Shown here piece after piece: positions 10,500 through 41,343 of a stretch of DNA of 49,568 nt. The DNA is from a virus (Duplodnaviria > Caudoviricetes). Position numbers and translations under genes: made by a program. The stretch is taken from IMG/VR virus record IMGVR_UViG_3300030330_001337, positions 1-49,568 of that record; one strand, written 5' to 3'. Numbering within the stretch: the stretch's first letter is position 1; the number at the start of each line of letters is the position of its first letter. The notes under the pieces are model-generated. The model was not told where the DNA came from, made no database searches, and worked only from the letters and a program-made list of their open reading frames with translations.

Positions 10500-10808
10500 A
10501 TGGCTAAAAAGAAAGATCCAAGATTAGCAAGAGCAGGAGTAAGCGGATACAACAAAGCTAAGCGTACTCCTAATCACCCTACAAAATCTCACGTAGTTGT
10601 AGCTAAAGTTGGAGACAAAGTAAAGCTTATCAGATTTGGCCAGCAAGGTAAAAGAGTCGGTAGTGTAAAAGGAACTGCAGGCAAACCCAAAAAAGGTGAA
10701 TCAGCAAGAATGAAAGCAAAGCGTAAATCTTTTAAAGCAAGACACGCTAAAAATATAAAAAGAGGTAAACTGTCTGCTGCGTGGTGGGCAAACAAAGTAA
10801 AGTGGTAA
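10500..10808 (+). CDS. Small basic conserved viral protein (DUF5754-like, from memory)
   Basis: KLIRFGQQG...KRKSFKARH...SAAWWANKVKW motif. Confidence 0.65.
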   Translation: MAKKKDPRLARAGVSGYNKAKRTPNHPTKSHVVVAKVGDKVKLIRFGQQGKRVGSVKGTAGKPKKGESARMKAKRKSFKARHAKNIKRGKLSAAWWANKVKW

Positions 10809-11812: not shown

Positions 11813-12016
11813 ATGAAAGTCGTAAAAAAATATCAAAAGGGAGGTAAGGCCCCAAAACTAACTATTTTAAATAAGTCTGTTATGGTGGACCCACCAAAGG
11901 GTTTTCACTGGATGGAGGAGCAGGGTAGATATTATCTAATGAAAGGTGACTACAAGCCACACCCAGGTGCATCAAAACAAGCTAAGTTTAAGCAGGCCAA
12001 CCATCCGAAAGGGTAA
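11813..12016 (+). CDS. Small basic protein with MKVVKKYQKGGK motif
   Basis: A-rich leader, TAATG coupling to next gene. Confidence 0.75.
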   Translation: MKVVKKYQKGGKAPKLTILNKSVMVDPPKGFHWMEEQGRYYLMKGDYKPHPGASKQAKFKQANHPKG

Positions 12017-12285
12017 TGGCTAAGTCGCCAGCACAACAAGCAGCGATAGCTATTGCTATGAAGAAGGCAGGCAAGAAACCTAAGTCTGCTAAAAAAGGAA
12101 TGAAGTTCAATCCTAAATATACTAGGGGTAGCTCTGATGTATCTAAACGTAAAAAACTTATGGCGCAAATAGCTGCTATATATAAAAAACACAGAGGTAC
12201 AAAAGATAAAAGAAAGAAAAAAGGATTTCCTCCTGCTGTAGCTGCAAGGCTAAAGTCGTTAATGAAGCAAAGAGATAAGATATGA
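12016..12285 (+). CDS. Small very basic protein
   Basis: Translationally coupled on both sides; QQAAIAIAMKKAGKKPK motif. Confidence 0.75.
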   Translation: MAKSPAQQAAIAIAMKKAGKKPKSAKKGMKFNPKYTRGSSDVSKRKKLMAQIAAIYKKHRGTKDKRKKKGFPPAVAARLKSLMKQRDKI

Positions 12286-12494
12286 AAGCTGTTAAAAAGT
12301 ATAAGAAAGGCGGTATGTCTGGTCTTGATGCTGCACAAAAAGAAGTATACCGTAGAGGTCTTGCTGCATATATGAGTTCTGGTAATAGACCAAAAGTGTC
12401 TCAGCATGCCTGGGCTATGGCTCGTGTAAAGAGTGAGTTTGGTAGAAAAGAAGCAGCGAAGATCAGAGCAGGCAAGGGCAAAAAGAAAAAGTAA
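12282..12494 (+). CDS. Small basic protein (DUF5824-like, from memory) with MKAVKKYKKGGM motif
   Basis: VYRRGLAAY...RP..SQHAWAMARV motif; ATGA overlap. Confidence 0.7.
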   Translation: MKAVKKYKKGGMSGLDAAQKEVYRRGLAAYMSSGNRPKVSQHAWAMARVKSEFGRKEAAKIRAGKGKKKK

Positions 12495-24705: not shown

Positions 24706-27700
24706 ATGAATGATAAGGCGATAGAATATATATTGCAGCAATATGAGCTAGGTAAAGATTCAGATAAAATATATGCTGATCTTGTTTTTAACCCTATGTT
24801 TAAATTAGAGAAAAATGTTGCTAAAAAATTAATTGAAGAGACTTTAAAAAAAAAAGATCCTGGTATAGAAGCTACATTCCAAGAGCGGAATCCTTTTGTA
24901 ATAACTCCTTCAGTAGATATTCAATCTCCATCGGAAACATTCGATTCTCAATTACCAGAAGAAAAGCCTGAAGAAGGGGAAACTGACATCCCTATAATTT
25001 CTGACTTAGCTGACTTTACAGAAGGTATACCTGTTTTAGGTGGTCTTTTTGATTTTGCAGAGGACTTTTCGAGAGCTTTTAGTAGTGGGGTTACACAAGG
25101 AACTGCAGGCGTTGACGCATTAGAAGCTGCTTTTGGAAAAGCAGAAGATGACGATCTTCAAGAGATTGTAGATGCAATGATCGCTCAAGATCAAATTGGA
25201 CTGTCAGATGAGGCTATTGCTTTGCAAAAACAGATAGATGAACTGTATGCAAATGGAGGGAGTAGCTTTGATGCTTTTTTATTAAGAGGTTCAAGTTTTG
25301 ATAATTTTAGCGCAAGTCTTGAAATCCTAGGGAACAGCTTAGGATTAATGCTTGGTGCAACTGTAGATGACTATGGTAAAAATACACTTGGGGCATTAGG
25401 TGTTGGTGCTACAACCAGTGCTGCAATAGCAGCTCCTGTGGGCGCTGTAGCGGCATTAAATCCTGCAGGTGCAGTTACAGGGTCAACAGCTTTTGGAGGA
25501 ACATTTCTTGCTACTTTACCAAAAACAACTATGGGCGCTTTCTCTGGTATTATAGATGCAGAGGCTACAATAATGGAGATAGCTAGAGAAGAGCTTATGT
25601 CTGCAAACAAAGAAATCAATGTAGAAAACTTAAGAGCTGTATTTGAAGATCCTGAGATAAGATCTAGAATGCAAAGTAAAGCTGCTGCTAGAGGTATTAC
25701 AATAGGTCTTATTGATGGTTTAACGATGGCAGGTACTGGTAAGGCTGTTTCAGGATTAGCAAAAGCAGGGGTATCTACTTCAAAAAGATTTGCAGTTGCT
25801 ACAACAGGAGAAATGCTAGGTGGATCAGTAGGTGAAGCTACCGCTCAGCTTGTTACAGAAGGTGAGTTGAATTGGGATGAAGTTTTAATGGAAGGTGTTG
25901 CTGAAGGTCCTATGAGTTTGGTTACTTATGCTGCTACTAAACAATCACAGTATAGATTAAACGGACAGCTTGTTAGCTTAGAAGAGTTTAACAACTATCT
26001 AAATAGCGGAGAAAGACTGCAGAGCTTTGAGGTTACTGGTGATGCAGAAGTAAAAGATAGGGCTAATAAAATAAAGAAAGCTCAAAAAACAAGTGTAGAT
26101 GAGGTAGAACAGATGCTTCAAGAAGAAGCTGCAAAAAGAGGTATAAAACTTTTTGGTCCATCTTTAACGAGAGCTGTTGGTCATGCATTTAAAAAAGTAC
26201 AAGACGCAAAGAATTCTAATAACAAGACAGACATAAACAAAGCAATTTCTTCTGCAGTAGATTTTGTTCAGCAGAGAAACAAAAAAGATATTTATGATCT
26301 TAATGCTTCAGAAGAAAGTTCAGGTTCTAGAGGTAGAACTATGGGTAGTTCAAAGTATGATAGTCAAGGTTCTGCTGCTGACAAACTTTTAAAAAGAGCT
26401 GCTCAAATTAGAGAAGAAGCTAAGCAAAAAAATCCTTCTGAAAGAAAATCTTTACTACAAGTAGCTGAGTCTTTAGAGGTTCAAGCTGAAGAAATTATAT
26501 CAGAAAGATCTGAAGTATATAGAATACTTTCTGTAATTAACCCTCAGCTAGCAGATAAAATACAACAATTAGATCTTCAAGCTAGAAACATAGAAGACAG
26601 GTTAAAAAAAGCTGATATCTCTCCAGAGCTTAGAGAAAGCTTAGAGCAAACATTAAAAGATGTTGTAGGAGAAAGAGTTGAGCTAGAGGCTTCAATTGAT
26701 ATATCTTCTGAGGTAGATGCAAATGAAGTTACAGCAGATTATTCTCAAGAAATACAGACAAGAAATGATAATATAGAATCAGAGATAAGTGATCTTCAAG
26801 GCACTATAGAAACCCTTCAAGAAGAGCTGTCTACTGAAAACGCAGATCCTGATGCATTGGATGCGGCTAATGCTAGAATGGAAGACTTGCTAGAAGAAAG
26901 AGCTGAACTTCAAGACGCTTTATCTGAATATAATGCAGCAAAAGAAAATTTATCTAATCTATCTGAAGATCTTGGTAGAGAAGGTTCTGTTGATTCTATA
27001 AATGCTATTGATAAAGCAAATGAAAGATTAGCAGAAGCTAAGCAAGCAATAGCTGATATACTTGGTATAGATACGACAACAATAGAAGAAGTACAGGCTG
27101 ATTTGAATGAAACCGCAGAAGCTGTTGAAGGGACTACGGAAGCAGAAACTACGGAAACAGAAACTACTTCAGAAAAAATAAATGAAGCAGATCAGTCTAA
27201 TATAGATACCTCAGATATTGAAGAAGAAAATACTAAAACTGAAGTCATAGGTAAAGTGCCTGATGAGTTTGGAGGAGGTGATATTAAAAGAACTTCTACT
27301 ACGACAGTTCCTGAAGCAGCACAAAAAACCCCTAGATCTAAGAATAACAATCCAGCGTGGAGAGAGGGAATGGCTGATGGGCAAATAACAGCTTCCCAAG
27401 CTAGAGCTCTAAACAACTTGCAAAAGCTTCTAGATAAGTTAGGTATAGAAATATACATATACTCAACTCCTGAAGCTGCTGCTAAATACAAAGACGGAGA
27501 TTGGGGTGGTCTTTATAGTGGTGGAGCAGTTCATATAAATCTAAGCCAGATAAATGAATCTCAAAAGCTAGAGTCAGAAAGTGGATTTAGAAGAACAAAG
27601 AGCTTTGAAGAAACTCTGCAAGAAGAAGTAATGCATGGAATTATAGGTCCTATATTTTCTGGTGCATTTAAAAACAATCCTAAGGCTACCGTTAAGTATA

Positions 27701-30700
27701 GAAGTCAGCTAAACAAAATATTAAATAAAAATAAAGACTTAAAAGATAGGGTTGAAGCTAAGGAGAAAACATACAGAGATGCAGGGAAGTCTGAGGATGT
27801 AATATTTGAAGAAACTATTATAGAAGTTTTGTCTGCAATAGCAGGTGGAACTGAGGCTGTTAATACTGGAACTCTAGATCAAATTAGAGTTTTAATAAAC
27901 AATATTCTAAAAACAGCTGGTATATCTTACAGAATACAGAGCACTAATGATCTAATAAATTTTGCAAACAAATTTAAAGATGCTCAAGAAGGTAAGAATG
28001 TAAATCTTGAATCAGAGATTAACGCTGCTCAGTCTGAAAGAGCTAAAGCTGGTCAACGTGGTGCTGCGGATATAGATGCAAGTAAGGATAGAACTTCTTC
28101 TATGATATCGCCTGCTAAGATCCCTACAAATGAAGATGGGACTGTAACTGTAAAAATATTTAAAGAAGGTTATAGAAGGCTTGATGATGGATTTAGAAAA
28201 GCTATAGGAGCTTTCCCAGAGGATAGAACGTTTAATGATCAATGGCATTTTATAAACTGGTGGAGAAGAGTAGCGAAAAACAACAGCGACTATGTTTCTT
28301 TTTATACAAAAGATGACACTCCTATTGATGTTGAAAGAATAAACAGATACAGATCTAGCGAAAGAGAAAGTTTAGCTTTAACACCTGCAGAATCAGACAT
28401 TAAAGAGATAAACAGGATGGTTAGTGCCGCTCAATCTCAAGGCATTTTAGATCCTATTGTAGCAAAAAGAATAAGACAGAAGATAAGATCAAAATCTAAT
28501 AAGTTTAGGTACTTTAATGAAAGAGGGTTAACTGCTGAAAAAGAACAATATTCTAAAAATCAAAAACCTGTTGTAGCTGAATTTAAAACTTTTGTAGAAG
28601 GTATCATAGATAAAAATGCTAAAGACAGGAATATAGATTTTAACTTTAGAGGAGATGATGATGTTAGAAATTCAATATTATTGTCTAGAGAAATATTGAA
28701 TACAGATGCTAATAGCAGAATAAACTACGGAAAGGTTGGTGACTTATTAGGAAAAATTACAGGTATTAAACCTAAAACAAGAGTTCAGACTTATGATTTT
28801 TTAAGAGGTGAATTAGAAAAAAGGTTTACAAATACAAATGATGCTGTTGCCCACTATAGCAGTTTATTGGGTGGTATTATTGCAGACCCTCAATTAAGGT
28901 CTGACATGTTTGGTGAAGAGAATCCTATTGAGTTTTTTACCAATTACCAAAAAGAAGCTGAGTCTCTTATAGATAAGCTTTTGGCTGATGGTGATATTAC
29001 TGGAGACAGAGTGGATAACCTTGCTAAGCTTAATTACTTTATTGCTTTACTATCTGCTAAAAATCAATCTTCTACAAATATTAATGCTGCGGTAACATTA
29101 TTAAAAGACTCAGAGAAGTTTAAAATAAATGATCCTCTTGGTATATCAAAAGACTTTATAAGAAAAGTTAGAACTGGAAAGATAGAAGGTGTAAGCAATT
29201 TAGCTAGACATGCTATAGCTAGGGGTTTAGAAAAACTTATAGCTGTAGTTAATAATGATGTAGCTAGTATTGAAGGAATGCCTTCTACAATAGTTGACAA
29301 TTTAAAACAAGGTTCTTCATTCATAAAAGACGGAGCCGTTGACTGGATGGGATTAACAGAATTCTTATTGTCTCCTTATGAAGGTAGCAGAGTAAAAATA
29401 CAAGGGGATGTGGTTTCTCAGCAGATATTTGGTCCAAAGATTGGAGCTTGGCTTTTAAACATGAACCAAGGTTTATTCCCTCAAATGTCAGTAGATGGCA
29501 AAAGATTATCTGATGTAATTACTATTGATACACATGTTTTAAATACATCTGCTTTAGTATTGGGAGGCTATGTAGATGCTGGTGCTGCTGCTGGATATCA
29601 TGCGCAAAAAATAAATAGATTAAAGCAAGAATATGACGCTCCTCAAAACGAATTACTAACTGAAGTTCAGTTTGATAAAATTGAAAGAGCTAGAGCTGCC
29701 CTGTCGACTCCAGAAGAGGCTAGGAGTAAAAGACAAAATACGCTTATAAATGATGCTGGTAGAATTATAAGAGAACAAGTTCTATGGTGTCAAAAAACAA
29801 TAGAGTTTTTACAGGTCGAAGGAAGAGATAAAGAGGCTAGAAGAATAGAAAGGGCTTTGGATAATATTATAAATCCTGTTGTTTCTGAATCTATGCGTCT
29901 AAAGAGAGAGTCTAGAAAAGTAGTTGAATCTATTAGACAATCTCTTAACGATACATTTGGAACTGAACTCACAAACTCTCAAGTAGGTCAGCTTATGTTT
30001 GCTGATAGACAAGCGTTTAGCTTTAAATTATTTAATGATGACGGAACTGTTAACACTAACAGCTTAGATTATAAAACTTATGCTAACTCATTAAAGGGAT
30101 TGTCTAGCATTGATCAAAGACCATCAGCATCAAACGATAACATGTCAGCTTCATACATGATATCTCCTTTAGAGAAAATGCAAAAGGCAGATGAGTCTCC
30201 TTTGTATAGAGCAAGAACAGCTTCAGAAGTATTGCTGATGAAGAACGGAAGGCGAATCAATAATAGAGAAGTTAATGAAGCGCTAAGAAGTGATGCTGTT
30301 TCAAGAAGAATATTAGAAAAAAATAACTTTGTAAAAAACGATCAAAAGGTAGGTGTTAGACTAAATCTTAATGTTCTTAAAAACACTGGAGTTCCAGTTC
30401 AAACAGTTCATGATAAAACAGCGACAGGAGAAGCTCTTTTGTATGCTCCATCTGTTGTGCTTAAAAATGTTAAGTTAAATGTAAATCAAAACGCTAGAAA
30501 CAAAATAGTTACATTCCAAGAAAATAAGTTTCCAATGGCTAGTGTTGACGGAAGCTTTGTAACTACAAACCTAGACGAACAGAATTACAATGGAGTAAAA
30601 GCTTTCTTTAATCCATTTAAGCACAATGTTTTTGTAGATGCGTCTGGTAGACCAATCAAGTCTGCTAGCGAAGCAACTGTTGTGGGTAATAATGTTTACC

Positions 30701-33639
30701 TAAGAGGTGATATTGAGTACTACTCTTTTGACGATCCTATCTTAGATAAAGGAAGGGTAGAGTCTGCTGAGCAAAATGCTAAAAGAATAAAAAGAGGACC
30801 TAAGTATAACAAAGGACTCAAGAGGTTTGTTATGTGGTCAAAGAGTCAAGGTGTTGAGTTTGTAAATAACTTAGAAGCTGAAGCGGCATATGACAATATG
30901 CCAATAACTTCTTTAGTAGCTCTCAATGAAAGCGAAGTGGTTAATAACATGGAAGAGGCTCAAGACAGAGCTTCTATGATGTTGAAACTCAGAGCTACTG
31001 CTGGTAGAGGTGCAAGAACATATACTGCTGTTAGGGATCAGATTATAAATAATCCTTCTAACTATTTTACACCACAAAAGTTAGAAGAGATAAAAGATAA
31101 GCTTACAAACAAAAGCGATCAAGATCTTGTTGAAATGATGAGTGGTGAAGGCTTAAGTAATTTACAAAATAGGAATGATGACATAGGTGTTTTAGCTGTT
31201 TCTGAGCTTATAAACAGAGCTGTTGCAGCAGGAAACATGGATGCAATACCTGGTCTTATAAATCAAGCTTCTCAAATTGGTACTACTGTGGGTAGAATCA
31301 TGAGGCACTTAAGAGAGTTAAAATCATCTACACCAGTTTCTATCGTACAAACAATAGTGAAGGCCGTTGAGGCAAATGGCAATAGGCTATCTGCAGATCA
31401 AATGACTAGACTAGAGGGTATATCTGGAGAGTTATTTAGACTGCAGGCTGAGCATGAATCTCTAACTAAAAGAGCTATTGCTGGAGAAAACGTAGATGCT
31501 GAACTAAATGCTAAAACAAAAGAGCTAAAATTAGTAGAGAGAAGCCTTGATACTTTTGCAAACGCAGTTATTGAAAGAGGATGGGGGCAGATAGGAACTA
31601 TGCTTATACAGGGTAACTTGCTTACTCCAATGTCTCAAATAACAAACGTTGGTGCTAACCTTGTTAATGCTATAGGTAAAGTTGGTGTAGACATAATTGC
31701 TTTGCCTACAGAAAAACTAATTAATGCATTTGGAATAGAATCTCCTATGAAGAGAAACTACTCTATTAATGCTTACATGTATGGGATTAGAAAGTTTGGA
31801 ACTGGATTTGTAGAAGCTTTAGATTCTATTGTTACTGGTCAAGAGTCAGATGTTACTGAGTGGAGAATACATAGAGGATTTGCTCCGTTTAGATCTTTGA
31901 TGTCTGCTATGGGTAAAGGAGATTTACCTTTAGGTCCTGACGGTAAAGCATCATTAAGTCAAAGAATAAAACTTGGTGTTCAAGGTACGCTAGGTATACC
32001 TGCAGAGACTATGTTTAGGTTCTTATCTCTTGGTGATACTCCTTTTAGAAGGTATGTAGAAGGCATGGAGCTTTACAGGGCTGGATTGAATATGGGTCTA
32101 GAAGGTGATGCTCTCATTGACTTTATGAAGCATCCTAACAAAAAAGCTTTAGATGCTGCGCAAAGAGAGGGTAGAAAGCTTACATTCCAGGAGCAAACAA
32201 CGTTGTCAAATGTAGCTGAAAATGTAACTAAGACTTTTGAAGACATTATGGCTTCTGCATTGACATGGCTTCCAGGTGTAGACGGAAAAGCTTTTGCTAA
32301 GTTTATGATAAGATCTAACTTACCTTACCTAAGAACACCAGCTAACATATTGATGGAAACCTTAACATATGTGTCTCCTTATGTAGCTATACCTAGAATC
32401 ATGAAAAAGCTTCAAGAAGGAAATGCAAGGGAAGCTGCAGAAAACTTTGGTAAGCTTACACTAGGAACAATGGCTGCTCAAACTGCAACAATATTAGTAA
32501 AGGAAGGATTAATTTCAGGTAACATAGAGTGGGATGAAGATGAAGAAAAAAATATCGCATACGATCAGTTCCCTCCTAACAGTATTAATGTAAGCGGTCT
32601 TCAAAGATGGTTGAAAGGAGAAGATACTTCTCATCAAAGTGATGACTACTTTATATCTTATAATAAACTAGGAGTTTTAGGCGCTATTATTGGCGCTACA
32701 GCAAAGTCGTCTAATAAAGAAGATTTGAAGTCTAGAGATTACTCTGAAACTTCTTTTGCATTACATGCAGTTCAAGATGCATTTGGTGTAGGGGCTTTCT
32801 CTTCTATGTCATACATGATGGATCAAAGCTTTATGCAGGGAATGAATACATTGATAAATGTTATTTCTTCAGCAGATGCTAGCGACTTTGAAAGAAATTT
32901 TGAAAACTGGTCTAGAACTACATTCCAAGCTGTATCAGCAACAGCCCTACCTAATACTCTGTCAGCGTTATACAGAGGTAATAGAGAGTTTTTGCCTGAC
33001 ACACGAACAACAAAAGATGCTTCTTTAACAGATAGGATCTTACAGAGAATGAACTACACAATTAAGGAAAGAACTTTTGGTTTATCAGGTGTTCCTGTTA
33101 GAATAAACTGGAAGGGAGAGCCTATTAGGCAAACGCCAAGAGGAACCACAGGTATGGTTTACAATCTGTTTGATATTACAAAATCTAGACAAGGTGAAGA
33201 TGATCCAGTATCAAACGAAATATACAGGTTGTATGAACAAACATACCAACTTACTAAAGCTGTTGGTACTCCAGGGTATGCAGAAAAAAGAAAACTAAAT
33301 GTACCTAATGTAGGTTCTAAAGAAATAAGAATGTTAAACAGAATGGGATTAAATTATAGCTGGATGAATGATCAAGAATTCATGGCGGAAAGATTATATC
33401 TCAATACAGATCAAATGAACAGACTTATGGCTGCTTCTGGAAAAGAGAGATATGCAGAGCTTGAAATGCTAATGAGTACACCTAAGTATCAATCTATGAC
33501 TGATCAGCAAAAGATAGAAGCTTTAGATGAAATAAATGAAAATTATAATAGTGCAATAGAGATAAAGGGTGGCAAGTTTAAAAACCACACTCTCGTTTTA
33601 TTCGAAATTATGCAAGAAATATATCAAAATGAAAGATAA
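24706..33639 (+). CDS. Giant (2977 aa) internal virion/polyvalent protein
   Basis: G/A-rich hydrophobic segment, long coiled coil, degenerate zincin (QEEVMH), LS...N...A / GPK / TIDTH domain, amphipathic C-terminal region; position typical of a large ejection protein. Confidence 0.8.
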   Translation: MNDKAIEYILQQYELGKDSDKIYADLVFNPMFKLEKNVAKKLIEETLKKKDPGIEATFQERNPFVITPSVDIQSPSETFDSQLPEEKPEEGETDIPIISDLADFTEGIPVLGGLFDFAEDFSRAFSSGVTQGTAGVDALEAAFGKAEDDDLQEIVDAMIAQDQIGLSDEAIALQKQIDELYANGGSSFDAFLLRGSSFDNFSASLEILGNSLGLMLGATVDDYGKNTLGALGVGATTSAAIAAPVGAVAALNPAGAVTGSTAFGGTFLATLPKTTMGAFSGIIDAEATIMEIAREELMSANKEINVENLRAVFEDPEIRSRMQSKAAARGITIGLIDGLTMAGTGKAVSGLAKAGVSTSKRFAVATTGEMLGGSVGEATAQLVTEGELNWDEVLMEGVAEGPMSLVTYAATKQSQYRLNGQLVSLEEFNNYLNSGERLQSFEVTGDAEVKDRANKIKKAQKTSVDEVEQMLQEEAAKRGIKLFGPSLTRAVGHAFKKVQDAKNSNNKTDINKAISSAVDFVQQRNKKDIYDLNASEESSGSRGRTMGSSKYDSQGSAADKLLKRAAQIREEAKQKNPSERKSLLQVAESLEVQAEEIISERSEVYRILSVINPQLADKIQQLDLQARNIEDRLKKADISPELRESLEQTLKDVVGERVELEASIDISSEVDANEVTADYSQEIQTRNDNIESEISDLQGTIETLQEELSTENADPDALDAANARMEDLLEERAELQDALSEYNAAKENLSNLSEDLGREGSVDSINAIDKANERLAEAKQAIADILGIDTTTIEEVQADLNETAEAVEGTTEAETTETETTSEKINEADQSNIDTSDIEEENTKTEVIGKVPDEFGGGDIKRTSTTTVPEAAQKTPRSKNNNPAWREGMADGQITASQARALNNLQKLLDKLGIEIYIYSTPEAAAKYKDGDWGGLYSGGAVHINLSQINESQKLESESGFRRTKSFEETLQEEVMHGIIGPIFSGAFKNNPKATVKYRSQLNKILNKNKDLKDRVEAKEKTYRDAGKSEDVIFEETIIEVLSAIAGGTEAVNTGTLDQIRVLINNILKTAGISYRIQSTNDLINFANKFKDAQEGKNVNLESEINAAQSERAKAGQRGAADIDASKDRTSSMISPAKIPTNEDGTVTVKIFKEGYRRLDDGFRKAIGAFPEDRTFNDQWHFINWWRRVAKNNSDYVSFYTKDDTPIDVERINRYRSSERESLALTPAESDIKEINRMVSAAQSQGILDPIVAKRIRQKIRSKSNKFRYFNERGLTAEKEQYSKNQKPVVAEFKTFVEGIIDKNAKDRNIDFNFRGDDDVRNSILLSREILNTDANSRINYGKVGDLLGKITGIKPKTRVQTYDFLRGELEKRFTNTNDAVAHYSSLLGGIIADPQLRSDMFGEENPIEFFTNYQKEAESLIDKLLADGDITGDRVDNLAKLNYFIALLSAKNQSSTNINAAVTLLKDSEKFKINDPLGISKDFIRKVRTGKIEGVSNLARHAIARGLEKLIAVVNNDVASIEGMPSTIVDNLKQGSSFIKDGAVDWMGLTEFLLSPYEGSRVKIQGDVVSQQIFGPKIGAWLLNMNQGLFPQMSVDGKRLSDVITIDTHVLNTSALVLGGYVDAGAAAGYHAQKINRLKQEYDAPQNELLTEVQFDKIERARAALSTPEEARSKRQNTLINDAGRIIREQVLWCQKTIEFLQVEGRDKEARRIERALDNIINPVVSESMRLKRESRKVVESIRQSLNDTFGTELTNSQVGQLMFADRQAFSFKLFNDDGTVNTNSLDYKTYANSLKGLSSIDQRPSASNDNMSASYMISPLEKMQKADESPLYRARTASEVLLMKNGRRINNREVNEALRSDAVSRRILEKNNFVKNDQKVGVRLNLNVLKNTGVPVQTVHDKTATGEALLYAPSVVLKNVKLNVNQNARNKIVTFQENKFPMASVDGSFVTTNLDEQNYNGVKAFFNPFKHNVFVDASGRPIKSASEATVVGNNVYLRGDIEYYSFDDPILDKGRVESAEQNAKRIKRGPKYNKGLKRFVMWSKSQGVEFVNNLEAEAAYDNMPITSLVALNESEVVNNMEEAQDRASMMLKLRATAGRGARTYTAVRDQIINNPSNYFTPQKLEEIKDKLTNKSDQDLVEMMSGEGLSNLQNRNDDIGVLAVSELINRAVAAGNMDAIPGLINQASQIGTTVGRIMRHLRELKSSTPVSIVQTIVKAVEANGNRLSADQMTRLEGISGELFRLQAEHESLTKRAIAGENVDAELNAKTKELKLVERSLDTFANAVIERGWGQIGTMLIQGNLLTPMSQITNVGANLVNAIGKVGVDIIALPTEKLINAFGIESPMKRNYSINAYMYGIRKFGTGFVEALDSIVTGQESDVTEWRIHRGFAPFRSLMSAMGKGDLPLGPDGKASLSQRIKLGVQGTLGIPAETMFRFLSLGDTPFRRYVEGMELYRAGLNMGLEGDALIDFMKHPNKKALDAAQREGRKLTFQEQTTLSNVAENVTKTFEDIMASALTWLPGVDGKAFAKFMIRSNLPYLRTPANILMETLTYVSPYVAIPRIMKKLQEGNAREAAENFGKLTLGTMAAQTATILVKEGLISGNIEWDEDEEKNIAYDQFPPNSINVSGLQRWLKGEDTSHQSDDYFISYNKLGVLGAIIGATAKSSNKEDLKSRDYSETSFALHAVQDAFGVGAFSSMSYMMDQSFMQGMNTLINVISSADASDFERNFENWSRTTFQAVSATALPNTLSALYRGNREFLPDTRTTKDASLTDRILQRMNYTIKERTFGLSGVPVRINWKGEPIRQTPRGTTGMVYNLFDITKSRQGEDDPVSNEIYRLYEQTYQLTKAVGTPGYAEKRKLNVPNVGSKEIRMLNRMGLNYSWMNDQEFMAERLYLNTDQMNRLMAASGKERYAELEMLMSTPKYQSMTDQQKIEALDEINENYNSAIEIKGGKFKNHTLVLFEIMQEIYQNER

Positions 33640-34063
33640 AAAAATAAAAGACACAAAGCTAGGTAGCTGGCTAAAAAGCAAAGCTCCTAAAGTATTAGAT
33701 GTAGTTGGAGATCTACTACCAGATAGCGGTGGTTTAGGTGTAGTTAAGAATTTAATTGCAAACGATCCTGACGTAGATACAGATGACGGAATGGCTGCTG
33801 TTGATGCAGAGATTAAGTTTCAAGAAAACGTCACAGAGCGCTGGAAAGCAGACATGGGCAGTGACGTTAAATTAGCTAAGCTTATACGTCCTATAACTCT
33901 TATTTCTTTGATGGGAATGTTTATGGTTACTATGATGATTGACAGCATGGACAACGTTGCTTTTAATGTAAAAGACTCTTATGTATCTTTGCTTGAATTA
34001 TTAATGCTCACAGCGTTTGGTGCATACTTCGCTGGTAGAACTATAGAAAAGAGATCTAAATAA
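33629..34063 (+). CDS. Putative holin (3TM/GTA-holin-like)
   Basis: VTERWKADMGSD..LAKLIRP followed by two hydrophobic helices and GAYFAGRTIEK. Confidence 0.7.
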   Translation: MKDKKIKDTKLGSWLKSKAPKVLDVVGDLLPDSGGLGVVKNLIANDPDVDTDDGMAAVDAEIKFQENVTERWKADMGSDVKLAKLIRPITLISLMGMFMVTMMIDSMDNVAFNVKDSYVSLLELLMLTAFGAYFAGRTIEKRSK

Positions 34064-36282
34064 TGTTCCGTAAACTACTGATTATTATAGCTTTAATTGC
34101 ATTTGCTTCAAGCAATGCTTTAGCGCAGGGTAGTTGGTTGGATGTTCAGGTTCAAACAGACGAATATGCTGGAGAAACATCTTGGGAGATACTTAACGAA
34201 GACTCTGAGGTTGTTGCAGTAAGCCCTCCGTACCAAAATAATACTCTTCAAAACCACATGGTATTTCTACCGTCTGGTGATTACGAGTTCGTAATAATGG
34301 ACGCTTTTGGAGACGGCATATGTTGTCAGTTTGGAGAGGGTTGGTACAGGATAAGCAATAACTGCGGTCTGGATACGGCTAACTATGAGTTTGCTACAGC
34401 TACAGACACTATACCATTTACGCTTAACCCATGTATACCGCCTCTACCTGGATGTACTAATCCTGTGGCAAACAATTACAACCCTTGGGCTAATATTGAC
34501 AACGGAAGCTGCAATGTATTTGAGTGCGACTCTACAGAAACATTAGTGTCCATGGATCTTACGTTAGATACGTGGCCTGGAGAGACTGGATTTACATTAG
34601 TTGATTTAGCAACTGGTCAGTTTTATGATCAGGTAATACCTGGTGAGTTTGACTTTGGCGATCAGTTAGTTACGTACACATATAACTTTTGCGTTAGTCT
34701 AGGGTTCGAGTTAATACTAGTGGATGAGTTTGGTGATGGATTGAACGGGTATGCTTCAGGCGGTCAGGACGGGGCTTGTGTTATCACAGCATGCGACAGC
34801 GTGTTGTGGGAGTTAGAAGATCTTGCATTTACTACGTTTGATGATGGAAACACAATGTATTCTGGACCTATATTCCCAGATCTATGCCCTCCAGATCCTG
34901 ATGTTTATGGATGTATGGATGATGATTACGTAGATTATAATCCAGAGGCAACAGTTCAAGACACTTGTGAGACGCTACACACTTGGGGGTGTACAAATCC
35001 AGAAGCGTTAAACTACGACAGCACTGCAACCATAGCAGATCTATCAAGCCCATGTACTATACGTATAGTGTTGGAGGACGATGCAGGAGACGGATGGGGT
35101 AACTCTAAAATAGGAATGGTTCATGGTGATCAACAATGGTTGTTTACTGTAGGTCCTGGACAGTTTTCTCAGTCTTGGGATATAGTTTTAGACTCTGATG
35201 AAGAGGCCGATATATATTACTTCCAGGCTGGCAATCAACAGCAGTCATCTCAGGAACTTGCCTTTCAAACTTTACACAACTCTGTGTATGTTCTTAATGA
35301 AGCTGGAGATACTCTGATGTCTGAAGGTAGCAATCCATTTATAAATAATGGTCAAGGAGCTCTGCAGCCGTTTACAGGTCCAAACTGGACTGTGTATCAT
35401 TTTACTCCATACTGCGGAGACAGCTGCATACCTTATATATATGGGTGTACCGATGAGACTGCTTGTAACTACAACTCTGAAGCTAACACAAATTCTGAAT
35501 GCAACTATCCAGTTCAGTATTACGATTGCGATAACGCTTGCGTAAATGATAATGATAGTGATGGGGTGTGTGACGAGCTTGAAGTTGTAGGGTGTCAAGA
35601 TCCTACTGCGTTTAACTACAATGCACTAGCTACAGATGCAGGCGACTGCGTGCCAGTTATTTTTGGATGCACTGACCCTACGCAGTTTAATTACAATCCA
35701 GAGGCTAATACAGAAAACGGAGGTTGTATACCTTATGTATACGGATGTATGGACCCTTACGCATTTAATTACAACCCTGATGCTAATACAGAGTTAGAAG
35801 ATTCTTGTATCGAAGTGTTAGAAGACTGCATGGATCCAGATGCATTTAACTATAACGACTTAGCTAACACACCTAACGAAGAGGTTTGTTTATATGATGC
35901 AGGATGCATTACTGGTCCTGGAGAACCTTACTGGTTAAACGATGGGTGTTATGCATGGATTATAGATATAGATCCGTACTGCTGTGACGTTGCATGGGAC
36001 GAGACATGTGTGGATTTATACTCATATTGCGAACAGGGTTGGCCGCAAGGTGTTGTGGAAAATATTAGGGATATATCTGTATATCCTAGTCCTGCTCAAG
36101 ATGTCTTGAATATCAACGCTCCTTCTAAAGCGATTACAAGCGTATATAACGCACTTGGAGAAATTATAGTGTTAGACACTACAGAGAAAATTATAGACCT
36201 TTCACAGCTCTCTAATGGAGTTTACAAGGTTGTAATAAAATATAATGGAATAACTATCAACAAAAAAATTATTAAACTATGA
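34063..36282 (+). CDS. T9SS type-A sorting domain protein with signal peptide and Cys/Asp-rich repeats
   Basis: MFRKLLIIIALIAFASSNALA-Q signal peptide; three DxxGDG domains; eight GCxDxxAxNYNxxAxx..C repeats; CTD VYPSPAQDVLNI...IDLSQLSNGVY.V.I......KKIIKL. Confidence 0.9.
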   Translation: MFRKLLIIIALIAFASSNALAQGSWLDVQVQTDEYAGETSWEILNEDSEVVAVSPPYQNNTLQNHMVFLPSGDYEFVIMDAFGDGICCQFGEGWYRISNNCGLDTANYEFATATDTIPFTLNPCIPPLPGCTNPVANNYNPWANIDNGSCNVFECDSTETLVSMDLTLDTWPGETGFTLVDLATGQFYDQVIPGEFDFGDQLVTYTYNFCVSLGFELILVDEFGDGLNGYASGGQDGACVITACDSVLWELEDLAFTTFDDGNTMYSGPIFPDLCPPDPDVYGCMDDDYVDYNPEATVQDTCETLHTWGCTNPEALNYDSTATIADLSSPCTIRIVLEDDAGDGWGNSKIGMVHGDQQWLFTVGPGQFSQSWDIVLDSDEEADIYYFQAGNQQQSSQELAFQTLHNSVYVLNEAGDTLMSEGSNPFINNGQGALQPFTGPNWTVYHFTPYCGDSCIPYIYGCTDETACNYNSEANTNSECNYPVQYYDCDNACVNDNDSDGVCDELEVVGCQDPTAFNYNALATDAGDCVPVIFGCTDPTQFNYNPEANTENGGCIPYVYGCMDPYAFNYNPDANTELEDSCIEVLEDCMDPDAFNYNDLANTPNEEVCLYDAGCITGPGEPYWLNDGCYAWIIDIDPYCCDVAWDETCVDLYSYCEQGWPQGVVENIRDISVYPSPAQDVLNINAPSKAITSVYNALGEIIVLDTTEKIIDLSQLSNGVYKVVIKYNGITINKKIIKL

Positions 36283-36467
36283 AAGTAAACTGGATTAACA
36301 GCTGGAACTCTTATAACAAGAAGGAGAAGTATGAGCTAAACTTTAGACTAGGCACAGTCGATGTGCTTCAGATTCATGTATGCCCTTGTCCTGCGTGCAA
36401 TAAGAAAAAGAAGAAGCCTTGTCCAAGGTTTAGATTCATGATACTTAACTTCGGATTCGAATTCTAA
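36279..36467 (+). CDS. Small protein with CPCPAC..C cluster
   Basis: ATGA and TAATG coupling to both neighbours. Confidence 0.7.
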   Translation: MKVNWINSWNSYNKKEKYELNFRLGTVDVLQIHVCPCPACNKKKKKPCPRFRFMILNFGFEF

Positions 36468-37540
36468 TGACTGAAAAAAAAGATTTAACTGTATTCATCT
36501 ATGCGCTGATCATGATTGTTGCCTTTATATTAGGCAGCAATTTTGAAGCGAAAGGACAGTCGTTAAAAAAAGTTTTTAGAGGGGCGACTTTTTACACAGC
36601 CTTTAGTGGAGGTAACTCAGTGTCAGATAATAACATTTACTCTGTAACAAATGGCTTGCAAACAGATGTTGTTGAAACACCTTTTGATTATTCTATAGCT
36701 GCTGGAGTCAGAAAGATTGCACGTTTTGGATATGAAAACAGAGCGAATGTTTTTTATGACGGCACAGAAAAATCTTATGGAGATGCTGCAACTGTAGGTA
36801 GGATAAATGGTTTTGAGTTTTTATTTGAAGCAGACTGGAGAAGACAACAAGGTAAAAAATTTCTTGAGCAAGATTATTTTTTGAGATATGTTGCAAAAAA
36901 CTGGATTGCTAAAGCAGAATATCTTCAAGATGGTTTTGCGGATGTGGAATACTTTGAAGCTTCTCAGAGATTTAGAGTGAACTTAAATAAGAAGCTAAGC
37001 TTTAACATAGGTATAGCTCAAAGAATATCAGAGCCTTACGGTTACAACCCTTTAGATCAATGGATGCTGTCCAATGGTAACATACATTACACAAGTCTAG
37101 CTATTGAAGAGGGATATACAATTGATGTAGAACAAGGGGAATACTTTGCTCCAGATGGAACTCTTGTTGCAAACAGCGCTGATGTTTGGGAACAGATAAT
37201 AATCCCAGAGATAATAAGCGAATATGTTTCTAGTAAAAGAAGTCAACTTCCCAATCAGTGGAACTACTCTTTGGTTTTAGGTTACGATTACTATCACTTT
37301 ACAAAAGACTTCTGGGTACATAGCTGGGCTACCATAATGCCTTACCACTTAAATACAGAAGGTGAATATTCTTACTTTGAAACGACTTCAGGGGACCAAT
37401 GGATTGATTACGGATCTGGCCTTATCTTTGGGTGTAGATTCAACAAAAGTCTTGGTGTATTCTTAGAGGGTAAATACAATAAGTATTGGAATCGAGAATG
37501 GCATGACTTCTCTGTAGGAATTAATTATGTAATATTTTAA
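36467..37540 (+). CDS. Putative outer-membrane beta-barrel protein
   Basis: N-terminal signal peptide ending EAKG-Q, amphipathic aromatic-rich strands, LGVFLEGKY...FSVGINYVIF C-terminal beta-signal. Confidence 0.75.
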   Translation: MTEKKDLTVFIYALIMIVAFILGSNFEAKGQSLKKVFRGATFYTAFSGGNSVSDNNIYSVTNGLQTDVVETPFDYSIAAGVRKIARFGYENRANVFYDGTEKSYGDAATVGRINGFEFLFEADWRRQQGKKFLEQDYFLRYVAKNWIAKAEYLQDGFADVEYFEASQRFRVNLNKKLSFNIGIAQRISEPYGYNPLDQWMLSNGNIHYTSLAIEEGYTIDVEQGEYFAPDGTLVANSADVWEQIIIPEIISEYVSSKRSQLPNQWNYSLVLGYDYYHFTKDFWVHSWATIMPYHLNTEGEYSYFETTSGDQWIDYGSGLIFGCRFNKSLGVFLEGKYNKYWNREWHDFSVGINYVIF

Positions 37541-37542
37541 AC

Positions 37543-38058
37543 ATGTATCACAAAAAGAAAAAAATGAACATGCCAGGTGGAGGCATGATGAGGCCTAAAA
37601 TGATGATGCCAGGAGGAGGAAAGATGAAGCGTATGATGGAAGAAGGAGGAAAGATGGATTACAAAGTAGCTAAGAGCTTAATGAATCCTATGATGCAAGA
37701 AGGCGGTATGACTAAGGATGAAAAGAAAGAAGGAAGAGAGCAAAGAAGGAGAAAGAATAAAGCAATCAGGGAAGATGAAAGGTTCCAGAGAAGAGCTGCT
37801 AGAGATCGTAAAGCTTTTACTTTTGGGACAAAAAGAAAAGGTGTAGAAGCACTTTTAGAAAATCTTGCTAACCCAGAAAAAGCTTATGAAAAGCAGCAAA
37901 TAAGAAAGCAGTTAGGAAGAATGGTTGCTCTTGGACTTATAGGAGGGCTAACTCCTAACATAGCTAGGCAAATAAGACAAAGAGGTAAGTTTGTTCCTCA
38001 GAATGAAACGTCAAGTTTGTTAGAAAGAATTTTACCAGGACTATTTACAGAAGATTAA
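37543..38058 (+). CDS. Basic Met/Gly-repeat protein with four MxxGG motifs
   Basis: MPGGGMM, MPGGGKM, MEEGGKM, MQEGGMT. Confidence 0.7.
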   Translation: MYHKKKKMNMPGGGMMRPKMMMPGGGKMKRMMEEGGKMDYKVAKSLMNPMMQEGGMTKDEKKEGREQRRRKNKAIREDERFQRRAARDRKAFTFGTKRKGVEALLENLANPEKAYEKQQIRKQLGRMVALGLIGGLTPNIARQIRQRGKFVPQNETSSLLERILPGLFTED

Positions 38059-38060
38059 TT

Positions 38061-38516
38061 ATGAAAGCTAAAAAATTTCCAGATTTAACTGGTGACGATA
38101 AGACAACAATGGCAGACATCTTAAAAGGACGAGGTGTTTTTGCTAAAGGAGGAATGATGCGTAGCTATGAGCAAGGCGGAAGCGCACCTATGACTCCAGT
38201 TGATGGACAAGTTTTACAAGATGAATCAGGTCGTGAATATGTTTTATTCAGTAAAGGTGAAGGCATGGCTCCTGTAAAAGTTTACTCTGATGACTACGGA
38301 TGGAACGAAGTAGATGGAGTTTTAGAAAGAGGTATTCAGTTTATTAGAACTGACATAACATACCCTGTTATTCCTGATGAAGAGTTTGGAGGTCTTAAGT
38401 TAGATGCTGTTAGATATGATGCTCAGATGAGCGATAGATCTGGAGGCATGTCAGACGACATGATGATGGAGGAAGAGGAAGAACAGCCTCAAATGGGAAT
38501 GCGACCTATACGATAA
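38061..38516 (+). CDS. Hypothetical protein with EF-hand/dockerin-like loop and xxGG motifs
   Basis: FPDLTGDDKTTMADILKGRG, FAKGGM, YEQGGS. Confidence 0.7.
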   Translation: MKAKKFPDLTGDDKTTMADILKGRGVFAKGGMMRSYEQGGSAPMTPVDGQVLQDESGREYVLFSKGEGMAPVKVYSDDYGWNEVDGVLERGIQFIRTDITYPVIPDEEFGGLKLDAVRYDAQMSDRSGGMSDDMMMEEEEEQPQMGMRPIR

Positions 38517-38520
38517 TGAC

Positions 38521-38805
38521 ATGGCTAGGCAAATAGGAGAAGATACTAAAGTAACGCTAGACCTAAAAACAATAGGTATGGGAGTGGCAGGTTTAGCAGC
38601 TCTCATTGGAATGTGGTTTGCTCTTCAAGCAGATATAGCTTTAGCTATGGAGCTACCAGAACCAGCAGATCCAGAAATTACACGCATGGAATTTGACATG
38701 AAAGATCAGCTTGTGCGTCAAACAATTATGACTACGCAGGAAGATGTATCAGAGTTGAAAGAAGATTTAGACCGTATTGAAGAAAAAATAGATAAGCTAC
38801 AGTGA
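38521..38805 (+). CDS. Single-pass membrane protein with C-terminal coiled coil
   Basis: IGMGVAGLAALIGMWFAL TM helix, PEPADP linker, heptad VSELKEDLDRIEEKIDKL. Confidence 0.75.
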   Translation: MARQIGEDTKVTLDLKTIGMGVAGLAALIGMWFALQADIALAMELPEPADPEITRMEFDMKDQLVRQTIMTTQEDVSELKEDLDRIEEKIDKLQ

Positions 38806-39140
38806 AGAATTTAATCTACATATGTTTATTTGCAGTTACATCTCTTGGTATGGGTATACCAGACTCTGGTATATGTGTCGTAGAGTTTAACGCAGGTTTT
38901 AATTCAGCGAATAGTGTAGAATGGATTGATGATTTAAGTGATTGTAAAAACAAACGCATAGATATTGCTGCTGAACCAGACATGCAGCGTGAACATAAAA
39001 TTGTTGTTGTACCAACAGTTATTGTATTTAATGATGGGGAGGAAGTAGAAAGATTCCAAGCAAATATAATGATGCAACTAGAGGCAACTCAAGATGAAGT
39101 GCAGGAGTCGGTTGATGAAATAATGATGAGCTGGTTCTAA
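38802..39140 (+). CDS. Exported thioredoxin-fold protein lacking CxxC
   Basis: GTG start, signal-like N-terminus, VVEFNAGFNSAN replaces VVDFxAxWCGPC, IVVVPTVIVFNDGEEVERF retained. Confidence 0.75.
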   Translation: MKNLIYICLFAVTSLGMGIPDSGICVVEFNAGFNSANSVEWIDDLSDCKNKRIDIAAEPDMQREHKIVVVPTVIVFNDGEEVERFQANIMMQLEATQDEVQESVDEIMMSWF

Positions 39141-39424
39141 TGCGAGCTAAAAAAGACCCAAAGGTAGGCACAGGAAAGAAACCTAAAGGTTCTGGAAGAA
39201 GGCTGTACACAGATGAAAATCCTAAAGATACAGTCGGTATAAAGTTTGCTACACCTAAAGACGCAAGAGCTACAGTAGCCAAGGTAAAAAAAATAAGTAA
39301 ACCGTTTGCTAGAAAGATACAGATACTCACTGTAGGTGAACAAAGAGCAAAGGTGATGGGGAAAAAAGAAGTAGTTAGTATCTTTAGAAAGGGTAAGGAA
39401 GATTTAAGAAAGTCAAGAAAATAA
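39140..39424 (+). CDS. Small basic conserved phage protein
   Basis: RLYTDENPKDTV.IKFAT...KIQILTVGEQRAK; TAATG coupling. Confidence 0.75.
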   Translation: MRAKKDPKVGTGKKPKGSGRRLYTDENPKDTVGIKFATPKDARATVAKVKKISKPFARKIQILTVGEQRAKVMGKKEVVSIFRKGKEDLRKSRK

Positions 39425-39448
39425 AAAGGGAGCCGTAGCTCCCCTCTT
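39423..39448. terminator. Terminator between the convergent genome arms (U-tract on minus strand)
   Basis: AAAAAGGGAGC-CGTA-GCTCCCCTCTT. Confidence 0.85.
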
Positions 39449-39450
39449 AC

Positions 39451-41343
39451 TTACCTAACTGGACAAGCTCCAGTGTCACAATCGGAAATATCTATATCAT
39501 ACATGTTCAGCTGATTAAGAGACATAATTGGTGTTGTTCCTTTCTTCATCTTCATGTAATCTTCTTTTGTTATTTCTTCCATTGGTGCTTGATCAAACCC
39601 ATGTTCGTTGTGCAGTAAGAAGCTGACACTCTTTACGTTAACGTAGTTTACATCAAGCCAAGCTTTAATATCATCAAGCTCTTCCTTTCTGTAGTAGATA
39701 GTTACAGATACTGAATTGTCAGACCATTCACTTTGAAGTCTTTTAATTACTTCTAACTGATCTATAGCACTCATGTCATTTGCAAACGTTGTGTTGCTTG
39801 GAAATGAACAAGGGAAGCTTACAACAACTGTTGAGTGATCTTCTGTTCCGTCAAAGTTTCTTACATACTCTACGTGATACCCGTTGTTCCTGCATACTCC
39901 GACCAGCTCGCTATCTGCAGCCATTCTGATTCTTCGTATGTAGTGCTCTGAGTACCCTGGATGTGCTCCTGGTGTAACGCCAGCAAGTAAACTAAGCGTT
40001 CCAGATGGCTTAACTGTAGTAAGCTTAATAGATGTAGGGAATCCACATATTTTTGAATATTCTTTGTCATATGATCTTAAATAAGTGTAACATTCAGGCA
40101 ACCATGATTTCTGCTCTTCAGTAGCTTGAAGATAACCAGTAACTCCTATACCCATTCTCATGTTCTTGTGAACAATATCTTCAGTCTCCTTTACTTCACA
40201 TTTGATAGCCAAGCTATGCTTGTTGATTCTGTAAAGCAAAGAGGCTACTTCTTTTAGCTCCTTTAAAGATTTAATATTAGGCAGATATATTTCAGCTAGA
40301 CAGCACGTTTCAAAAGGTTCTAAGCTTTGTTCAGCACAAGGATTGTAACCCATTACATTGTAGTCAGGGTACATTTCTTCTCCTGTCCTACCCATACGTC
40401 TAGATGCAGGTAGATTAATTAAACCATATGGCTCTCCGTTTCCTTTATAACCCTCCCAAAACTCTTCTGGAAGCTTAGATATATCGTCACATGCAACAGA
40501 ATTATTTGACATCGCTCTCCAGTTTGGTATACCTCCTAGATCCCAACGCTTAGCTCGCAAGTAGTCCATGTCATCATGATCTCCTATTGCTATTTGAGCT
40601 GACCTTCTTACGTTACCTGCGACAACAATCTTACCTATGATGTTCATGACATCTAAGCAGTCAATAGGGCGCAAGCGCTGCCCTGATCTTTCATTTAAGA
40701 TCCTATTGATTTCTTGCATACCCCATATTAAGTCTTTAGGTCCTGATGCTGTCCCTCCAAACCCTTTGATAGGAGATCCTGCTGGCCTTACTAAAGATGT
40801 GTCGTATGTGAATCCTTTTCCTGTTTCAAAGCTAGCCTCCAGCACACGCTTCAAAAGATCAGTCCATCCTTCACGAGAATCAGGAACAATAAAGTCAGCT
40901 CCATTGTCCTCAACGTGTTGAACTTTTACTTTTCTTTTTACTTTAGGAAGCTGATAGACATGCTCTCTTTGAATATTATAGCCAACTCCAGACCCAAGCA
41001 TAAGCATTTCAAACGCCCAAGTAAAAGGTCTAATTGGATGATCAATAACTGTGAAAGCACAATTCTGTAAAGAAGGTAATCCTAACTTGTCTACAGTTTT
41101 TGTTCCCAGCTGCCACAGGAATCTACCAGCAACAGTTCCCTTCAAATTCATCATCATATTCTTTATGTCTTTTTGATCATGTTTATTGAAGTCACATTTA
41201 AGCTGTTTATTGCACGCTTCGATTACACGATCAACAGTTTCTTCCCACTCTTCTGTTCTGTTTTTTAGGGGACGAGAATAGGTACGCTTATATGTGGCGT
41301 ACCCTACCTCTCCCCAGGGAATTTTCTCTGGGTTATATGTCAT
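39451..41343 (-). CDS. nrdJ: Class II adenosylcobalamin-dependent ribonucleotide reductase (monomeric RTPR type)
   Basis: TYKRTYSR, AGRFLW, NCAF, GNVRRSA, NPCAEQ, TTVKPSGTLSLL, C-terminal CDTGACPVR; no beta-subunit gene nearby. Confidence 0.93.
   Translation of the reverse strand: MTYNPEKIPWGEVGYATYKRTYSRPLKNRTEEWEETVDRVIEACNKQLKCDFNKHDQKDIKNMMMNLKGTVAGRFLWQLGTKTVDKLGLPSLQNCAFTVIDHPIRPFTWAFEMLMLGSGVGYNIQREHVYQLPKVKRKVKVQHVEDNGADFIVPDSREGWTDLLKRVLEASFETGKGFTYDTSLVRPAGSPIKGFGGTASGPKDLIWGMQEINRILNERSGQRLRPIDCLDVMNIIGKIVVAGNVRRSAQIAIGDHDDMDYLRAKRWDLGGIPNWRAMSNNSVACDDISKLPEEFWEGYKGNGEPYGLINLPASRRMGRTGEEMYPDYNVMGYNPCAEQSLEPFETCCLAEIYLPNIKSLKELKEVASLLYRINKHSLAIKCEVKETEDIVHKNMRMGIGVTGYLQATEEQKSWLPECYTYLRSYDKEYSKICGFPTSIKLTTVKPSGTLSLLAGVTPGAHPGYSEHYIRRIRMAADSELVGVCRNNGYHVEYVRNFDGTEDHSTVVVSFPCSFPSNTTFANDMSAIDQLEVIKRLQSEWSDNSVSVTIYYRKEELDDIKAWLDVNYVNVKSVSFLLHNEHGFDQAPMEEITKEDYMKMKKGTTPIMSLNQLNMYDIDISDCDTGACPVR

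Follow-up and report, generated by a model that had tools for sequence, protein, structure and literature searches.

Lysis inhibition in phage T4, in which the holin T and the antiholin RI take part, is dispensable for growth. T combines one membrane helix with a periplasmic domain, and the signal peptide of RI is cleavable (available sections of PMC11413866 and PMC8385771). Other described systems that resemble the locus reported here are the lambda spanins Rz/Rz1, the T9SS (type IX secretion system) cargos carried by Cryophages, and the phage-encoded outer-membrane proteins (OMPs) of lambda (Lom), cyanophages and huge phages. Spanins are not universal, since 91 of 677 phages in one survey had none (available part of PMC6139136), and flavobacterial phages include some with and some without annotated spanins (available part of PMC8776804). 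Here we describe four genes of the IMG/VR virus record IMGVR_UViG_3300030330_001337 (Duplodnaviria; Caudoviricetes), of which positions 1 to 49,568 were analysed and are called the window below. They encode a predicted T9SS cargo (C), a predicted outer-membrane beta-barrel (B), a predicted inner-membrane protein (M) and a predicted exported thioredoxin fold (X). Together, C, B, M and X are a real, conserved and widespread four-gene envelope module.

Each described system shares part of this composition. M and X, as predicted, resemble T and RI in pairing a single-pass inner-membrane protein with an exported periplasmic partner and in their tie to lysis genes (PMC11413866, PMC8385771, in the sections available), but neither has a family match to T or RI; M is a short coiled coil, X has a thioredoxin fold, and a barrel and a surface cargo are added. 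M also looks like an inner-membrane spanin (i-spanin), with an N-terminal membrane helix and a helical periplasmic part, a frequent position in the lysis cassette and a fixed M-X order (PMC6139136, available part); unlike Rz/Rz1, the module has no outer-membrane lipoprotein, M has no Cys and a shorter periplasmic part, presence is patchy, and barrel and cargo are extra. Like C, the Cryophage cargos are proteins with a type A C-terminal sorting domain (CTD) that vary between near-identical phages, whereas they carry enzyme or PA14 domains and the accessible text mentions no barrel, membrane or thioredoxin partner (PMC7468147). Lom, the cyanophage OMPs and the huge-phage OMPs are phage beta-barrels, some of them 12-stranded, with envelope-gene neighbours; the huge-phage survey, in contrast, concerns phages >200 kb with transport neighbours, and its main text mentions neither T9SS nor thioredoxin (bioRxiv 10.64898/2026.10.24.761521). 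A preliminary description of this stretch knew of no phage system of this composition, and we likewise found none in Creative Commons papers and bioRxiv, where the supplementary OMP table of the huge-phage survey might list the barrel. In that literature the four-gene set is undescribed, while phage T9SS cargo and phage outer-membrane barrels are each already known.

Linkage of the four genes

Loci were fetched with queries from three barrel clades and a divergent M, keeping at most the best 80 per query, and are neither random nor independent. At least 4.5 kb was available on both flanks at 147 of 261 barrel loci, and neighbours were counted within 5 kb of the barrel. M was present at 142 of the 147, X at 143 and the cargo at 137; when barrels were clustered at 70% identity, M and X accompanied all 26 clusters and the cargo 23. 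This co-occurrence across unrelated phage lineages upholds the earlier proposal of a multi-gene unit. Among the five misses, one (L169) was an error of open reading frame (ORF) calling; for the other four and L273, all with B and C split from M and X, X was found elsewhere in the genome (5/5). M lies immediately 5' of X in 222 of 244 loci, and the 203 loci with all four genes show the orders CBMX (76), BCMX (65), BMXC (43) and MXCB (19). We discarded the idea that all gene orders are circular permutations of one another, which BCMX (65/203) does not fit. The question of whether the genes occur independently in relatives has a divided answer: they are linked in most loci, but the linkage is hierarchical, with M and X also found without barrel and cargo.

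All genes named in the preliminary description are present on the + strand, with stops and starts that overlap or nearly touch. The region is laid out as follows.

33629..34063, + strand: holin, a neighbour that precedes the module often though not in every case (phrog_3427, E 7.4e-21)
34063..36282, + strand: C, predicted T9SS cargo of 739 amino acids (aa), from PF18962 and TIGR04183 above cut-off, hydropathy and a model
36279..36467, + strand: basic, beta-rich Cys microprotein of 62 aa, loosely linked by neighbourhood counts and hydropathy
36467..37540, + strand: B, predicted outer-membrane beta-barrel, from its model
37543..38058, + strand: basic filler ORF of 171 aa outside the module, found only in L001/L002 and duplicates among 116 loci
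38061..38516, + strand: filler ORF of 151 aa outside the module, full length only in L001/L002 and duplicates
38521..38805, + strand: M, predicted inner-membrane protein with one helix (17-35), from hydropathy and alignment
38802..39140, + strand: X, predicted exported thioredoxin fold without CxxC, from a profile against PDB and alignment
39140..39424, + strand: basic 94-aa ORF outside the module, last of the + strand run, from the ORF list and locus comparison
39419..39452, strand not assigned: hairpin at the point where the late and replication arms converge, a probable terminator, terminator-like on both strands

The tight run downstream of the holin stands as first described in its genes, coordinates and coupling, but two ORFs between B and M had been overlooked; these fillers have no hydrophobic segment and separate B from M. 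The Cys microprotein had also been listed as a component. We do not count it as core because it is near 45 of 147 barrel loci (6 of 26 clusters), has no signal peptide, and has a dispensable Cys loop, which 49-aa forms lack. L002 carries a longer allele of the 37543-38058 ORF and an extra basic ORF between M and X. Small Lys-rich ORFs at 10500-10808, 11813-12494, 37543-38058 and 39140-39424 belong to a type whose insertions, in relatives, are scattered freely within and beside the module. Upstream, 24706-33639 encodes a giant protein of 2,977 aa that has a single PF25735 domain and whose stop overlaps the holin start. Terminator-like hairpins in the region were no different in number from chance, a promoter scan of the region was at chance level, and RNA was represented by two short contigs covering 38175-38465, in the filler ORF only; no RNA data set was listed as containing the window.

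The window belongs to a linear virus record that is 81% complete. Its + strand carries terminase, portal, capsid-like and giant virion genes, and its - strand class II ribonucleotide reductase and primase-helicase. The terminase shares 40% identity with its counterparts in cultured Flavobacterium phages, with Cellulophaga phages also among 106 matches; these relatives and the T9SS CTD suggest a Bacteroidota host, and the sequencing runs containing the window are for the most part labelled marine metagenome. As the preliminary description had said, no integrase or repressor is present among the 47 window ORFs scanned, in a record that is 81% complete. It had also raised the possibility of a chimeric host insertion unsupported by reads. 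This we reject, since the near-identical phages L001 and L002 have the same gene order, contigs of runs X4 and X7 (possibly the window's own source) span the stretch as two overlapping pieces with 0-1 differences each, and the cargo GC of 42% equals that of the capsid region. The evidence supports the conclusion that the module is no recent host insertion.

Predicted architecture of the four proteins

Hydropathy and structural models place C, B, X and M in four envelope layers, in agreement with the layout first proposed. C contains 37 Cys and has a net charge of -103. Its sorting domain scores 36.1 bits against PF18962 (cut-off 27) and 32.9 against TIGR04183 (cut-off 23) and is of type A, so that C is predicted to exit via the host T9SS. 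The N-terminus has the features of a signal peptide, with a hydrophobic segment at 5-23 and Q22 invariant in 25 alignment rows. According to the model (pLDDT 74, pTM 0.28) and alignment, a D-x-x-G-D-G motif recurs in each of three beta-rich domains, after which come Gly-Cys repeats, a helical domain rich in Cys, and the CTD. Searches of the ESM Atlas with cargo residues 22-460 and with the barrel returned unnamed viral clusters and nothing else.

The cargo slot is constant while its content varies. In L002, whose flanks are ~98% identical, cargo bases 34123-35658 are replaced and the signal peptide and C-terminal part kept, a swap of the outer part as would be expected of a recognition surface. 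Across loci the slot holds a long protein with a 75-aa or ~45-aa CTD; in a second barrel clade, a Cys-rich protein of 150-310 aa with a short CTD-like end; and in a third, a lipoprotein with similar repeats. No protein was detected in the slot in the L122-135 clade. A Flavobacteriales genome has a protein of its own with the same short CTD. The cargo variant at L197:7229-10171 has an N-terminal MAM domain (PF00629, E 4e-20), pointing to adhesion-type domains, and L053 and L055 contain a tandem pair of cargo genes.

B is predicted to insert into the outer membrane. The model (pLDDT 82.3, pTM 0.74) has a signal peptide, a closed amphipathic barrel of 12 strands by manual count, an inserted subdomain at 189-263 and a C-terminal Y-V-I-F that reads as a beta-signal; the last residue is Phe in 69 of 110 rows. 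Nearly all fold matches are membrane barrels and none is close. A shuttle barrel of the T9SS (PorV/SprF type) gave no sequence match and was not prominent in the B fold lists: chain 6h3i_F, which we take to be PorV, aligned with Z 7.3, rmsd 6.5 and 202 aligned residues, below unrelated barrels. B matched nothing in Pfam, PHROG, NCBIfam or PDB sequences, and BFVD contained one unnamed viral relative. The barrel at L102:6541-7632, from a cargo-less clade, has an acidic Asp/Asn-Gly insertion in the inserted subdomain that may bind calcium; it is absent from the window barrel and present in several distant barrels. L174 carries two barrels, and in L246 the barrel is split over two ORFs.

M is predicted to cross the inner membrane once, through its single hydrophobic segment (helix 17-35), followed by a short helix, a Pro linker and a coiled-coil-like helix. 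X is predicted to be periplasmic; its profile matches 62 PDB thioredoxin sequences (best E 1.8e-07), with P71 at the cis-Pro position in 110 of 110 rows, a conserved P71-T72 and a terminal Phe. We dismissed a redox role for X, as CxxC is replaced by N-A-x-(W/F)-N and any CxxC occurs in 1 of 110 rows. Complex prediction with the barrel, two M and X scored 0.16 and 0.04, where the mark is 0.32, and weighs neither way. Mutual-information coevolution in paired alignments of 174-282 rows returned top pairs that reuse few columns, as under shared descent. In one clade (L307:8099-8776, L312:9891-10634), M follows an N-terminal domain and a Pro/Gln linker as a fusion. Its first 53 residues resemble weakly the MshEN domains of MshE and PilF, which bind c-di-GMP (E 0.09-1.5; 5htl E 0.093); the extension has no Pfam match, and we treat the likeness as a lead only. 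L143 and L144 contain two M-like genes.

Distribution and genomic context

For an unbiased set, relatives were picked by capsid protein and their whole records searched, and the 40 records at least 90% complete were counted. Of 20 window-like phages, 6 had B, as did 17 of 20 small phages of 26-31 kb. M and X were found in the same 25 of the 40 genomes, and B was in 23 of these 25 and in 0 of the 15 others; phage B was never seen here without M and X. The module is an accessory unit with nested content, M and X first and then B. Mapped onto a tree built from the capsids of 21 window-like genomes, the full set cannot be explained with fewer than 5 gains or losses and shows no clustering (326 of 500 shuffles were as low), which fits a dispensable modifier.

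For the barrel family, the searches gave 547 stretches of viral DNA and 3,687 clusters of proteins, besides metagenome stretches estimated at 5,100, and the phages concerned range from about 29 kb to about 170 kb; no cultured phage record matches B. A pattern scan of 185,579 species genomes returned 4 contigs, of which two read as phage, a third shows synteny with viral loci and the fourth is a short one that carries the module. In the order of one of them, profile searches of 401 genomes found B in two, on that contig and as one chromosomal copy, and M in four, three of them on stretches too short to classify. The chromosomal copy, a distant homolog at L642:9379-10593 (G139), sits among housekeeping genes of Flavobacteriales, presumably prs, rplY, pth and yjjG, and its contig has no match to M, X or cargo. 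With this homolog we gave up the idea of a phage-only barrel.

Lysis genes are frequent neighbours. A holin lies within 3 kb of 71 of 147 barrel loci, and a holin or endolysin lies inside the module at 24 and inside or at most two ORFs away at 88. The complete 28,965-bp genome G002 reads B, C, holin-like gene, M, X, endolysin, holin. The two genomes with M and X only (G039, G042) read holin-M-X. A further three (G025, G029, G036) lack X but have, at most one gene behind the holin, a gene with weak likeness to M (34-38 bits). In other genomes this slot is taken by a small coiled-coil protein of the membrane or by a secreted protein with HExxH, and three module-less small sister phages have, flanked by the same genes, a different lysis cassette. 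The position after the holin seems to be a hotspot for exported proteins. In the module-less genomes G011 and G044, a secreted HExxH metalloprotease-like protein is encoded close behind the holin (L556:16699-17940, - strand; L576:18540-19682, + strand), and in G019 such a gene is in pieces.

Possible roles of the module

Nesting behind the holin, dispensability and a variable outer part are best fitted by a regulatory relay. Our tentative preference, held at less than even confidence, is that the accessory late-gene module forms a relay across the host envelope that tunes lysis timing. M would be of holin type or would regulate the holin, X would control M from the periplasm, and the two would share the topology of T and RI in T4; B and C would receive input from outside, e.g. 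attack by other phages or cell contact, on which lysis would be delayed or triggered. The full sensory chain, running from a variable T9SS-exported sensor on the phage barrel through a dead thioredoxin to the inner-membrane coiled coil and the moment of lysis, is unlikely to hold in every link. Beyond gene content and linkage, each step is predicted or inferred.

Several results weigh against the relay. M and X have no family match to T or RI in Pfam, PHROGs, NCBIfam or PDB, and these phages already bear one or two other holin-like genes. No holin or endolysin was detected within two ORFs at 59 of 147 loci; the holin is 25-30 kb off the module in G030 and G038, and the endolysin is 32 kb distant in the window. 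A late promoter alone could account for the position of the module, the adjacency counts having no formal null. The lone chromosomal barrel indicates that barrels of this family can occur in the absence of M and X. Finally, the cargo was undetected near 10 of 147 barrel loci, two of which (L307, L312) carry a lipoprotein instead, which suggests a host without the same T9SS route.

Many loci lie among head genes, after the portal gene and apart from lysis genes, and this placement favours a different reading as well, namely layered superinfection exclusion or surface remodelling with no lysis role. C and B would mask or decoy receptors or alter adhesion, and M and X would block DNA entry or brace the envelope. 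The accessory distribution and a variable cargo with swapped sorting signals and added domains such as MAM suit it. We nevertheless consider it somewhat unlikely, as it does not account for M, or M and X, standing alone immediately after the holin, nor for the lysis genes located within the module at 24 loci. Exclusion genes of lytic phages are usually early, whereas the module is in the late arm. Its precedents, as far as the available parts of the sources go, are the Cryophage T9SS cargo (PMC7468147) and lambda Lom blocking LamB (cited in bioRxiv 10.64898/2026.10.24.761521). Uptake, which had also been suggested, would make the barrel a substrate-specific porin for which the cargo captures substrate and M and X serve import. 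The top Foldseek matches of B are the 12-strand channels NanC and KdgM (E 3e-5, TM 0.32), and its inward-facing charged residues are conserved. Such fold matches are generic, however, with the best VIA match being TamA (Z 11.2, rmsd 3.4, 186 aligned); no transporter or binding-protein family is among the common neighbours, and the late, lysis-linked position is a poor fit, making uptake very improbable.

The remaining alternative is a substitute for spanins, in which M takes the i-spanin part, X forms the bridge to the barrel and, once the endolysin has acted, the complex fuses or breaks the outer membrane; the preliminary description had suggested outer-membrane disruption without spanins. 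The helix, short helix, linker and long helix of M resemble Rz (PMC6139136, available part), and the module is embedded in the lysis cassette in 17 of 20 near-complete small phages. No lipobox ORF was found in any frame in the window, in the complete genome G002 or in G003, with a control lipoprotein recovered by the scan. The lysis cassettes of module-less sisters likewise have no lipobox ORF, so there is no complementarity with spanins, and the earlier suggestion is weakened. Moreover, the barrel is missing in 14 of 20 near-complete podovirus-like relatives and in cultured relatives, M and X occur without an outer-membrane partner, and a variable 700-aa surface protein is superfluous for fusion. 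M is predicted to expose ~59 residues to the periplasm, and none of 110 rows has a Cys among its last 70 positions, whereas ~96% of two-component spanins have periplasmic Cys (PMC6139136, available part). We judge this role quite unlikely. A looser lipobox scan returned small lipoprotein-like ORFs in podophages with and without the module, many of them probably shadow frames. Among them are related 50-55-aa His/Pro-rich ORFs in G044 (near 41178, L578), directly upstream of the M15 endolysin, and in G028 (near 6361, L564), which are possible unrecognised genes similar to outer-membrane spanins.

The natural series of an M-like gene alone, M and X, M and X with B, and all four genes provides ready constructs. 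If the module does break the outer membrane, it would explain how spanin-less phages escape. Control of lysis by the module would, if real, amount to a new way of timing cell death in response to the environment, in marine Bacteroidota that are likely abundant, and would bear on how carbon is released in blooms.

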